From NCBI RefSeq assembly GCF_013315695.1, contig NZ_CP054353.1: 64,000 bases of DNA. The stretch is one strand, 5' to 3'. The stretch's first letter is position 1, and every line of letters starts with the position of its first letter. The stretch is from Escherichia coli (lineage in GTDB: Bacteria; Pseudomonadota; Gammaproteobacteria; Enterobacterales; Enterobacteriaceae). Below are positions 36,001 to 39,000 of this stretch, piece by piece. Made by a program: the position numbers.

Positions 36001-39000
36001 GCCGGGTTTGGTCCGACCCTCACTTTTTTATTTGTTTCCCCATTACTTAATCCCATTATCGTCGGGTTAATGTGGGTGACCTTTGGCTGGAAAGTTACCT
36101 TGTTGTACGAGATTATCGCCGCCGGCGTCTCCGTACTTGCCAGTATTATCCTGGATTCCCTGGGATTTGAACGTCATATCATTGCCAGTAAAAGCTCATC
36201 AGCAAATTGTTGTGCTCCAGCCAAAACTTCGCCGGGGACGACATATACGCCAATAAAAGTGAGTTGCTGTAGTCCAGCGGCTAAAGCCATTGAGAAACCT
36301 GTAGTAAACTGTTGCAGTACCAAAGCTGTGGTAAGTATTAATCCCATAAAACTAGCCACCAAAGATGCGTTGCAACAGTTTAAAGATGTACTGCCATATC
36401 TTTTGTTAGGGGTATTAATAGGCTCTTTTATTTATGGCTTTATTCCCTCAGAGTGGATTGCCGCTCATGCAGGGGCAGATAATCCCTTCGCCATCCCATT
36501 GAGCGCCGTTGTTGGTATTCCGCTATATATCCGGGCAGAGGCAGTTATCCCTCTGGCATCTGTTTTGATGACAAAAGGAATGGGTCTGGGAGCATTAATG
36601 GCATTAATCATCGGCAGTGCCGGCGCAAGCCTGACGGAAGTGATATTACTTAAATCAATGTTCAGAATACCGATGATAGTTGCATTCCTGACGGTTATCT
36701 TAGGTATGGCTATCTTGATGGGCTATTTGACTCAAATGCTATTTTAAATAGATGCCAGCAGTAAACTATAAGGAGTATTGTGAGTGCCTTATCCTTCTGA
36801 GTAGAAAATCATAGATAGGATAATCCTTAAAAATAACAAATAACTTAACTAATGCTTTGAGAATGATGACGGATCCGTCAGTAAGTCATCAATCGACAAT
36901 CACCACGCAATCATGCTTCTCTGACATTTTATCGGAGAAGCAATGTCTCTTTGTCTCAGTATCATCCCCCTTTTAAAGGGTAGATTTCAGTCGCCAATAC
37001 AACACATTTTTAAATACACTTTAACCTGGTTCATTATTACACATCTAAAACATCACAAAAATATCACTTCACACACTATCGGAGAACATCATAACTTCGG
37101 TAATGACTCCAACTTATTGATAGTGTTTTATGTTCAGATAATGCCCGATGACTTTGTCATGCAGCTCCACCGATTTTGAGAACGACAGCGACTTCCGTCC
37201 CAGCCGTGCCAGGTGCTGCCTCAGATTCAGGTTATGCCGCTCAATTCGCTGCGTATATCGCTTGCTGATTACGTGCAGCTTTCCCTTCAGGCGGGATTCA
37301 TACAGCGGCCAGCCATCCGTCATCCATATCACCACGTCAAAGGGTGACAGCAGGCTCATAAGACGCCCCAGCGTCGCCATAGTGCGTTCACCGAATACGT
37401 GCGCAACAACCGTCTTCCGGAGCCTGTCATACGCGTAAAACAGCCAGCGCTGGCGCGATTTAGCCCCGACATAGCCCCACTGTTCGTCCATTTCCGCGCA
37501 GACGATGACGTCACTGCCCGGCTGTATGCGCGAGGTTACCGACTGCGGCCTGAGTTTTTTAAGTGACGTAAAATCGTGTTGAGGCCAACGCCCATAATGC
37601 GGGCTGTTGCCCGGCATCCAACGCCATTCATGGCCATATCAATGATTTTCTGGTGCGTACCGGGTTGAGAAGCGGTGTAAGTGAACTGCAGTTGCCATGT
37701 TTTACGGCAGTGAGAGCAGAGATAGCGCTGATGTCCGGCGGTGCTTTTGCCGTTACGCACCACCCCGTCAGTAGCTGAACAGGAGGGACAGCTGATAGAA
37801 ACAGAAGCCACTGGAGCACCTCAAAAACACCATCATACACTAAATCAGTAAGTTGGCAGCATCACCCATACAACGACATAATAAAATATCAGCAAGAATT
37901 CCAAAAAGAATGTTACAAGCAAGTTAAAGATTTTACAACACCCTCTCGATACAATAGAATTAAAAAATGGGCACAAATGTCTGAATATCAATTCGAAATA
38001 TTTCAACACGATACGTTTCATCCTAAAAAAATGTCATACGCACCTTATTTAAAGAGATCGCTACCTGATGAAAAAACTATAAATTATGGGGTAGAAATAG
38101 AAACACCAATTGGCAAAAGAATTCGCTGGTAATGACTCCAACTTATTGATAGTGTTTTATGTTCAGATAATGCCCGATGACTTTGTCATGCAGCTCCACC
38201 GATTTTGAGAACGACAGCGACTTCCGTCCCAGCCGTGCCAGGTGCTGCCTCAGATTCAGGTTATGCCGCTCAATTCGCTGCGTATATCGCTTGCTGATTA
38301 CGTGCAGCTTTCCCTTCAGGCGGGATTCATACAGCGGCCAGCCATCCGTCATCCATATCACCACGTCAAAGGGTGACAGCAGGCTCATAAGACGCCCCAG
38401 CGTCGCCATAGTGCGTTCACCGAATACGTGCGCAACAACCGTCTTCCGGAGCCTGTCATACGCGTAAAACAGCCAGCGCTGGCGCGATTTAGCCCCGACA
38501 TAGCCCCACTGTTCGTCCATTTCCGCGCAGACGATGACGTCACTGCCCGGCTGTATGCGCGAGGTTACCGACTGCGGCCTGAGTTTTTTAAGTGACGTAA
38601 AATCGTGTTGAGGCCAACGCCCATAATGCGGGCTGTTGCCCGGCATCCAACGCCATTCATGGCCATATCAATGATTTTCTGGTGCGTACCGGGTTGAGAA
38701 GCGGTGTAAGTGAACTGCAGTTGCCATGTTTTACGGCAGTGAGAGCAGAGATAGCGCTGATGTCCGGCGGTGCTTTTGCCGTTACGCACCACCCCGTCAG
38801 TAGCTGAACAGGAGGGACAGCTGATAGAAACAGAAGCCACTGGAGCACCTCAAAAACACCATCATACACTAAATCAGTAAGTTGGCAGCATCACCGAATT
38901 CGCTTATCAAATCATTACCAGAATATAATCCCATAATATTGAACATTAGCGCTTTATAATCATTGAATAAAAATAGATTTTATGCACCTTTAAAAAAAGG

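Follow-up and report, generated by a model that had tools for sequence, protein, structure and literature searches.

IS1A of Escherichia coli K-12, a member of the IS1 family, is a 768-bp element with imperfect 23-bp inverted repeats, the insA and insB' reading frames and an A6C -1 frameshift site; it duplicates 9 bp of target upon insertion and prefers AT-rich targets. Elements of this kind are also associated with deletions of neighbouring DNA. The deletions of the gal region are the classical IS1 adjacent deletions, which arise by intramolecular replicative transposition, and deletions of varied length anchored at one IS end form the classical adjacent-deletion pattern. The outcome of intramolecular replicative transposition is a deletion or, alternatively, an inversion that leaves inverted copies, and transposition to a sister chromatid yields a duplication. 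A pair of IS1 copies in direct orientation is, in addition, the hallmark of Tn9-type composite transposons, in which recombination between the copies could excise or amplify the segment that they enclose.

Insertion sequences that lack a target duplication have been ascribed to adjacent deletion or to inter-IS recombination, and a 2024 analysis of the Lenski long-term evolution lines documented insertion first and adjacent deletion later (PMC11708052). In laboratory evolution of K-12, an IS5-mediated deletion has removed the gad island (bioRxiv 10.1101/063271).

Here we describe two direct IS1A copies in a natural isolate of E. coli, contained in a window of 64,000 nucleotides (the whole stretch of DNA analysed, from contig NZ_CP054353.1). 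One copy carries a perfect target duplication and the other has none. Comparison with close relatives suggests that the arrangement is the product of three IS1 events in an IS1-rich clonal lineage, in which 1,167 bp next to the first copy were lost by what we take, with moderate confidence, to be a transposase-type adjacent deletion.

Two direct IS1A copies upstream of slp

The genes around the insertions are, in order, arsC, an ArsR-type regulator (minus strand), a permease, the two IS1 copies, slp, dctR and chuS. The permease gene (35734-36747, plus strand), which the first-pass annotation had described as arsP-like, belongs to the ArsP_1 family (Pfam PF03773, E = 5.5e-52), and its stop codon lies 351 bp from the first IS1 copy. 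On the other side, slp (39182-39748, plus strand; assigned from the annotation in relatives) begins with an ATG 286 bp from the end of the second copy. Both genes are intact.

Copy 1 occupies 37099-37866 and copy 2 occupies 38128-38895, and these coordinates had been given correctly, to the base, in the first-pass annotation. The copies are each 768 bp long, 100% identical and directly repeated, with a start-to-start distance of 1,029 bp and a spacer of 261 bp (37867-38127). Identity between them ends at the element borders, extending 0 bp further on either side, and no further IS1 was found in the 64-kb window. Both copies encode their transposase on the minus strand, which places the IRR on the left and the IRL on the right: in copy 1, insA spans 37811-37536 and the insB frame 37617-37114, with the A6C frameshift motif at 37560-37554 (minus strand); in copy 2, insA spans 38840-38565 and the insB frame 38646-38143. 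The InsA ORF of 91 amino acids contains the Pfam domains Zn_ribbon_InsA and HTH_Tnp_IS1 (PF03811 and PF12759), the InsB frame of 167 amino acids contains DDE_Tnp_IS1 (PF03400), and the AAAAAAC frameshift motif lies at IS1 position 307, within the insA/insB overlap. The terminal inverted repeats (GGTGATGCTGCCAACTTACTGAT and GGTAATGACTCCAACTTATTGAT) match at 18 of 23 positions, and the termini read GGTGATGCTGCC.../GGTAATGACTCC.... An identical copy in E. coli AF3 is named 'IS1A family transposase' by RefSeq. Every testable IS1-defining feature is present in both elements, and relative to IS1A of K-12 there are no structural differences; the lineage is distinguished only by its two insertion sites.

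The flanks of copy 2 consist of a perfect 9-bp duplication, GAATTCGCT, at 38119-38127 on the left and 38896-38904 on the right. The 9-mer is single in the relative L002, where the site is empty, as it also is in AF3 and MSB1_4I. Copy 2 is an ordinary IS1 transposition, a simple insertion, in agreement with its first-pass reading. The flanks of copy 1 are unrelated: the left flank, CATAACTTC (37090-37098), and the right flank, CATACAACG, share only CATA. A 9-bp repeat at another offset was looked for, and comparison of the 40-bp flanks revealed no duplication at any nearby offset. The longest word that these flanks share, an 8-mer, is not a duplication, because it lies 32 bp from the IS end on the left and 17 bp from it on the right. 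We mapped 17 IS1 copies in the interval upstream of slp, in the window and in 14 other loci, and 9-bp duplications flank all of them but copy 1 of the window. Since all other mapped copies have a duplication, its absence from copy 1 is exceptional and has a specific cause.

The ancestral gene and the order of events

In E. coli STLIN_13, which is free of insertion sequences here, the space between the permease gene and slp is occupied by a gene of 1,224 bp, the product of which is a 'hypothetical protein' of 407 aa. This is the locus annotated yhiS in K-12, and in K-12 strains it carries an IS5 (insH); the same gene is therefore interrupted there as in the window, although by an element of a different IS family and at a different site. 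The gene is matched in 5,416 of the 5,426 complete E. coli genomes, with at least 80% query coverage in 4,321, and is usually uninterrupted among them, so the frame between the two IS1 copies is not a chance frame that lacks conservation elsewhere. Together with its upstream spacer the gene has a G+C content of 33%, versus 48% for the window. The 407-aa protein has no family match in Pfam or NCBIfam and only a weak pentapeptide-repeat match in PDB (E = 0.002, residues 204-254), and a family assignment was dropped on these grounds.

A query made from the left junction of copy 1 matched perfectly in two complete genomes, MSB1_4I (LR898874) and AF3 (OZ547117). In both, an IS1 that is 768/768 identical to copy 1 occupies the same site in the same orientation, CATAACTTC is present on both sides of it, the downstream 1,224-bp gene is intact and the copy-2 site is empty. 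Aligned with AF3, the 64 kb are equal but for 3 SNPs, the deletion and copy 2. There are 0 differences over 1-37870 (the first 31,968 bases compared with L016 and the rest of this span with L004) and 0 over 38896-41858, and the 3 SNPs fall in the final 22,223 bases. The source of the window is therefore very closely related to AF3, and both structural differences are recent.

Alignment with AF3 and MSB1_4I reconstructs the ancestral gene as well as the end-points of the deletion. At the deletion junction (37866..37867; alignment with L003 and L004), copy 1 runs from its IRL end directly into nucleotide 932 of the gene. The window has lost 1,167 bp (L003 5919-7085), counted from the first base past the IRL end of copy 1, and this segment comprises the right copy of the 9-bp duplication, the 227-bp spacer ahead of the gene and the first 931 coding nucleotides, namely codons 1-310 and the first base of codon 311. 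The left flank of copy 1 was unchanged by the deletion. The first-pass reading of copy 1, as the site of an adjacent deletion or of inter-IS recombination, is thus borne out: two genomes retain the pair of 9-mers together with the intact gene, and the duplication was lost in a deletion anchored at the IS1.

What remains of the gene is found on both sides of copy 2. The 261 bp between the elements (37867-38127, plus strand) are nucleotides 932-1192 of the gene, including codons 312-397; they are 100% identical to L003 7086-7346 and are open over 86 codons in the ancestral frame, with a translation equal to that part of the ancestral C-terminus. Copy 2 took nucleotides 1184-1192 of the gene (codons 395-398) as its target. 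Past it, in frame 2 (38898-38936, plus strand), come the 12 final codons, encoding IRLSNHYQNIIP, and the stop, which complete the ancestral C-terminus. The open frame that had been noticed between the elements and again after copy 2 is, accordingly, what survives of the 3' end of a conserved gene of 407 codons. From the stop codon of this gene to slp, a spacer of 245 bp is untouched; it lies directly upstream of slp, where a promoter is expected.

Another frame, of 78 amino acids, runs from AT-rich intergenic DNA into copy 1 (36943-37179, plus strand), and the first-pass annotation had counted it as a possible gene. This part of the earlier account is not upheld. The frame has no Pfam match and is unannotated in relatives; in L001, which has no insertion at the copy-1 site, it ends 2 codons beyond that site, and in L006 a 1-bp indel, common to L002 and L007, shifts the frame so that a stop follows 22 codons after the start. 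The 78-aa ORF is a chance frame and not a gene. Copy 1 therefore first landed in intergenic DNA, and exactly one gene between the permease gene and slp, where at least one had been proposed, has been destroyed.

The relatives allow the order of events to be proposed. The first was the arrival of an IS1A copy in the AT-rich spacer, 227 bp ahead of the 407-codon gene, with duplication of CATAACTTC; AF3 and MSB1_4I still show this state. Because ancestors with the complete duplication exist, sequence comparison shows that the insertion of copy 1 preceded its deletion. In a classical IS1 'adjacent deletion', the IRL end of copy 1 would then have attacked CATACAACG, a target 1.16 kb further downstream in the same DNA molecule, through intramolecular replicative transposition. 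In such an event, the product of which is what the window carries and the mechanism of which we infer, the chromosome would keep the IS1 and one copy of the target and would lose 1,167 bp, the intervening DNA leaving as a circle. Either before or after this deletion, a second identical IS1A inserted into codons 395-398 and duplicated GAATTCGCT. A one-step origin of both changes was considered and rejected on reasoning, because no single-event route leaves a direct copy with a private duplication together with the 261-bp segment.

Adjacent deletion as the favoured reading, and competing explanations

The left junction of copy 1 occurs in 177 index blocks of public assemblies, and the 24 such contigs that were read include other derivatives of the same insertion. 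In GCA_000408485.1 (L026), a deletion of 1,838 bp starts from the same IS1 base and ends at nucleotide 134 of slp. There is no microhomology at this deletion; an apparent 4-bp microhomology was rejected as an alignment overlap that contains a mismatch (CAGC versus CACC). GCA_900448625.1 (L024) combines the left junction of copy 1 with the right flank of a different IS1, one found in AF3 in direct orientation between truncated bcsR and bcsE genes. This deletion amounts to 54,341 bp, and the acid-fitness, chu and bcs regions are gone. As judged from its two flanks, the 54-kb loss is explained by IS1 x IS1 recombination of copy 1 with the distant IS1. The first-pass annotation had proposed that the tandem pair could drive loss of the acid-fitness and chu regions; such a loss has indeed occurred, in L024, but through copy 1 and a distant IS1 and not through the tandem pair. 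As for the window's exact arrangement, junction and whole-region queries did not find it among the matches listed for 5,426 complete RefSeq E. coli genomes, and an exact-protein look-up of the junction ORFs in public assemblies, 58 aa at the deletion and 32 aa at copy 2, returned nothing on record. This only makes the arrangement a strain-specific allele, without a match in the other public genomes searched.

The deletion in the window resembles the classical IS1 deletions of the gal region in several respects. The IS is intact (768 bp), the loss starts exactly at one terminus and proceeds in one direction, and the other flank, with its copy of the duplication, is unchanged; an ancestor exists, as does a sibling of different length, such that one IS end has given rise to deletions of 1,167 bp in the window and 1,838 bp in L026. 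The difference is that the present case comes from a natural isolate and is known from sequence, and that inter-IS recombination gives the same product.

Such recombination is the principal competitor of adjacent deletion. The 1,167 bp could have been removed by RecA, acting on copy 1 and a transient third direct IS1 inserted at CATACAACG in the gene; the crossover would take out the DNA between the two copies plus one IS1, and what is left would be identical to the product of an adjacent deletion. In its favour, IS1 x IS1 deletion is documented in the same lineage (the 54,341 bp of L024), the interval is a frequent IS1 target in which the window itself gained a second direct copy, and an IS1 with the duplication ACAACGACA in CUWW10 lies 3 bp from the end-point of the window's deletion. 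The cost is one extra event, the additional insertion, and the intermediate that it predicts was not found among the 5,426 complete genomes (matches listed) or in the 24 left-junction contigs; the L026 deletion, moreover, would need an additional IS1 of its own, in slp. We therefore regard the RecA route as possible but hold it only tentatively, and favour adjacent deletion because it takes one event fewer, because no intermediate was found and because the L026 deletion departs from the same IS1 base. That shared base also weighs against an IS1-independent origin, in which slippage or illegitimate recombination between 4-bp repeats (CATA...CATA) happened to abut the IS1 end. The lost segment and the retained flank do both begin with CATA, as do 8 of 1,419 downstream positions (0.56%). 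However, the left break would have to fall 0-4 bp from the IS1 terminus by chance, the independent L026 deletion reaches exactly the same IS1 base without any microhomology, and a 4-bp repeat is very short for slippage over 1.2 kb. In addition, 4 of the 13 duplications in the interval begin with CA, and the CATA match may thus be chance or a weak target preference. We consider a microhomology origin highly unlikely.

Two further explanations concern the pair as a whole. A short segment bracketed by two direct IS1 copies, as in Tn9, could suggest a composite transposon that arrived as a unit. Its outer flanks, however, form no duplication, the left one being CATAACTTC and the right one GAATTCGCT; copy 2 has a private duplication, and the ancestor has copy 1 alone. 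The 261-bp 'cargo', furthermore, is a piece of a dead native gene in its native place, colinear with the relatives and in frame past copy 2, so that the resemblance to Tn9 ends at the direct IS1 pair and does not extend to mobilisation as a unit. On the evidence of these junctions a composite-transposon origin is refuted, and the probability that we would still assign to it is negligible. It is also very improbable that the arrangement is an artefact of assembly, with an IS1 wrongly duplicated or the region mis-joined across repeats. One might suspect this from the 100% identity of the copies and from the failure to find the same arrangement in another complete genome or public contig searched, but all four junctions are biologically coherent and the left one is common to many genomes. 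The end of the IS coincides exactly with the start of the deletion, the perfect 9-bp duplication of copy 2 is not something that a mis-join would produce, and the copy-2 site also carries an IS1 in another lineage. Adjacent deletion remains the preferred reading for copy 1. A copy without its duplication is, on this reading, a textbook IS-associated deletion, here with natural intermediates in support; it is already known behaviour, and nothing at the locus departs from known IS1 biology.

Recurrent insertion and the fate of the region

Insertion of IS1 upstream of slp is recurrent. The interval contains 13 distinct IS1 sites with 9-bp duplications, distributed over 15 loci, and CUWW10 has independently acquired two direct IS1A copies in the same gene. 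MS 21-1, which has nothing inserted at the copy-1 site, carries an oppositely oriented IS1 in the very 9-bp target of copy 2, GAATTCGCT; this complete IS1 differs from the window copy by 3 SNPs. Since AF3 has the site empty, copy 2 of the window is independent of the MS 21-1 insertion. Flipping of an IS1 in place was considered as the source of the MS 21-1 orientation and rejected, as the terminal bases are swapped too and the copies differ by the 3 SNPs. Taken together, the empty and occupied sites indicate that the 9-mer GAATTCGCT is a recurrent IS1 target, used in two sister lineages in opposite orientations. The 51-aa remnant ORF that such insertions produce is blind to IS1 orientation at the protein level, because both IS1 ends give a product that terminates in RW before the stop; of 24 contigs with this ORF, the six short-read contigs whose DNA was inspected were all of the opposite-orientation MS 21-1 type. 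An apparent orientation bias in the interval, where 16 of 17 copies are oriented as in the window, was set aside as a sampling artefact because the queries contained IS1 ends in that orientation.

The gene itself has been disrupted in many ways, by IS1 at 13 sites or more, by IS5 in K-12, by IS1203 in an O111:H8 strain and by frameshifts. It is conceivable, although in our judgement rather doubtful, that the AT-rich 1.8-kb interval, or GAATTCGCT within it, is a true IS1 hot spot that depends on DNA structure or a nucleoid protein, or that loss of the gene is selected and is not neutral decay.

In the window, the gene lacks its upstream region together with 76% of the coding sequence and is irreversibly inactivated. 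In K-12, the slp promoter is bound and activated by YdeO (PMC4222967). Read-through from the insertions into slp is not expected, since transcription of both IS1 copies proceeds leftwards and so away from slp, and the predicted promoter is upstream of insA; a promoter-like match lies at the IRL end of copy 2, at 38888-38861 on the minus strand. The two direct repeats can, by inference, recombine with each other, in which case the 261-bp remnant and one IS1 would be dropped. AF3 has an inverted IS1 ~30 kb downstream and a direct IS1 ~54 kb downstream. The two direct IS1 copies, together with a downstream IS1 pair as in AF3, are predictable substrates for deletion or inversion. The IS5-mediated deletion of the gad island in K-12 parallels the 54-kb IS1 x IS1 deletion of L024, whereas the loss in the window is small and stops inside the gene, with slp and the acid-fitness island intact.

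For annotation, a single pseudogene should cover the remnant frames, and the 78-aa ORF should be left out; beyond such strain-level annotation the arrangement is of little importance. As a natural example, it brings together an ancestor, two small deletion derivatives and one 54-kb derivative of a single IS1, all in public genomes, and it shows an IS1-rich E. coli clone eroding the region beside its acid-fitness and haem-uptake islands.

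The yhiS-like gene and IS1 insertions upstream of slp

The ancestral yhiS-like gene (positions 6155-7378 of locus L003), of which a remnant survives at window 37867-38127, encodes a 407-residue product that belongs to no family in Pfam or NCBIfam. Residues 204-254 of the product weakly match the pentapeptide-repeat PDB entry 2f3l (E = 0.002). Alleles of the gene differ by about 12% at the DNA level between phylogroups, and in roughly one fifth of the sampled genomes the match to the query is confined to its first 620 bp.

In other E. coli, the 1.8-kb AT-rich interval upstream of slp contains at least 13 separate IS1 sites, all accompanied by 9-bp duplications (positions 3290-5075 of L002, a relative with an empty copy-2 site, corresponding to window about 37090-39270). 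The yhiS-like gene of CUWW10 independently carries two direct IS1A copies; in most genomes the gene remains uninterrupted. The copy-2 target itself (window 38119-38904) is occupied by an IS1 in the opposite orientation, at the identical 9-bp sequence GAATTCGCT, in MS 21-1 (L001 4709-5494) and at the ends of the six short-read contigs inspected (L018-L023) out of 24 with the remnant open reading frame. The copy-1 site is empty in MS 21-1 and in these six contigs, and three SNPs separate the MS 21-1 element from the window's copy. IS1 has thus struck the GAATTCGCT target independently in a sister lineage, represented by MS 21-1 and these contigs.

Other features of the window

The dinQ-arsR spacer contains the agrA/agrB antisense RNA repeats, which register as two Rfam AgrB matches (window 32696-32779 and 32930-33012; 108 and 90 bits). 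A divergent pair comprising an ArsR-type regulator and an ArsP_1 permease (window 35319-36747) separates arsC from the yhiS-like gene. K-12 and O157:H7 types are among the many genomes that lack this pair, and genomes without it covered just 57-62% of the first query.

Deletions from copy 1 and the bcs region

The right flank that copy 1 retains at the window's deletion junction (37866/37867) opens with CATA, the first four bases of the deleted duplication copy. CATA starts at only 8 of 1,419 downstream positions, and the match may reflect chance, a weak IS1 target preference or microhomology. In GCA_000408485.1 (L026 4763-5000), 1,838 bp are deleted from the IRL end of copy 1 into slp, at nucleotide 134; the junction is sequenced, the IS1 interior being a scaffold gap of Ns.

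Just past the window's right end, the closely related strain AF3 carries two further IS1 copies (within L028, AF3 3275500-3312000): an inverted element with the duplication AAAAAACAA between yhjB and rcdB (L028 1214-1981), and a direct element (L028 25673-26440) that has no duplication and leaves both bcsR and bcsE truncated. In GCA_900448625.1, the left junction of copy 1 is fused to the right flank of the latter element (L024 4157-4924 and its right flank). This fusion is an IS1 x IS1 deletion of 54,341 bp, with loss of the yhiS-like gene, slp, dctR, chu, hde/gad/mdtEF, treF and bcsRQABZC. The bcsA gene of AF3 contains an internal stop, and cellulose synthesis appears to be dead in this lineage.
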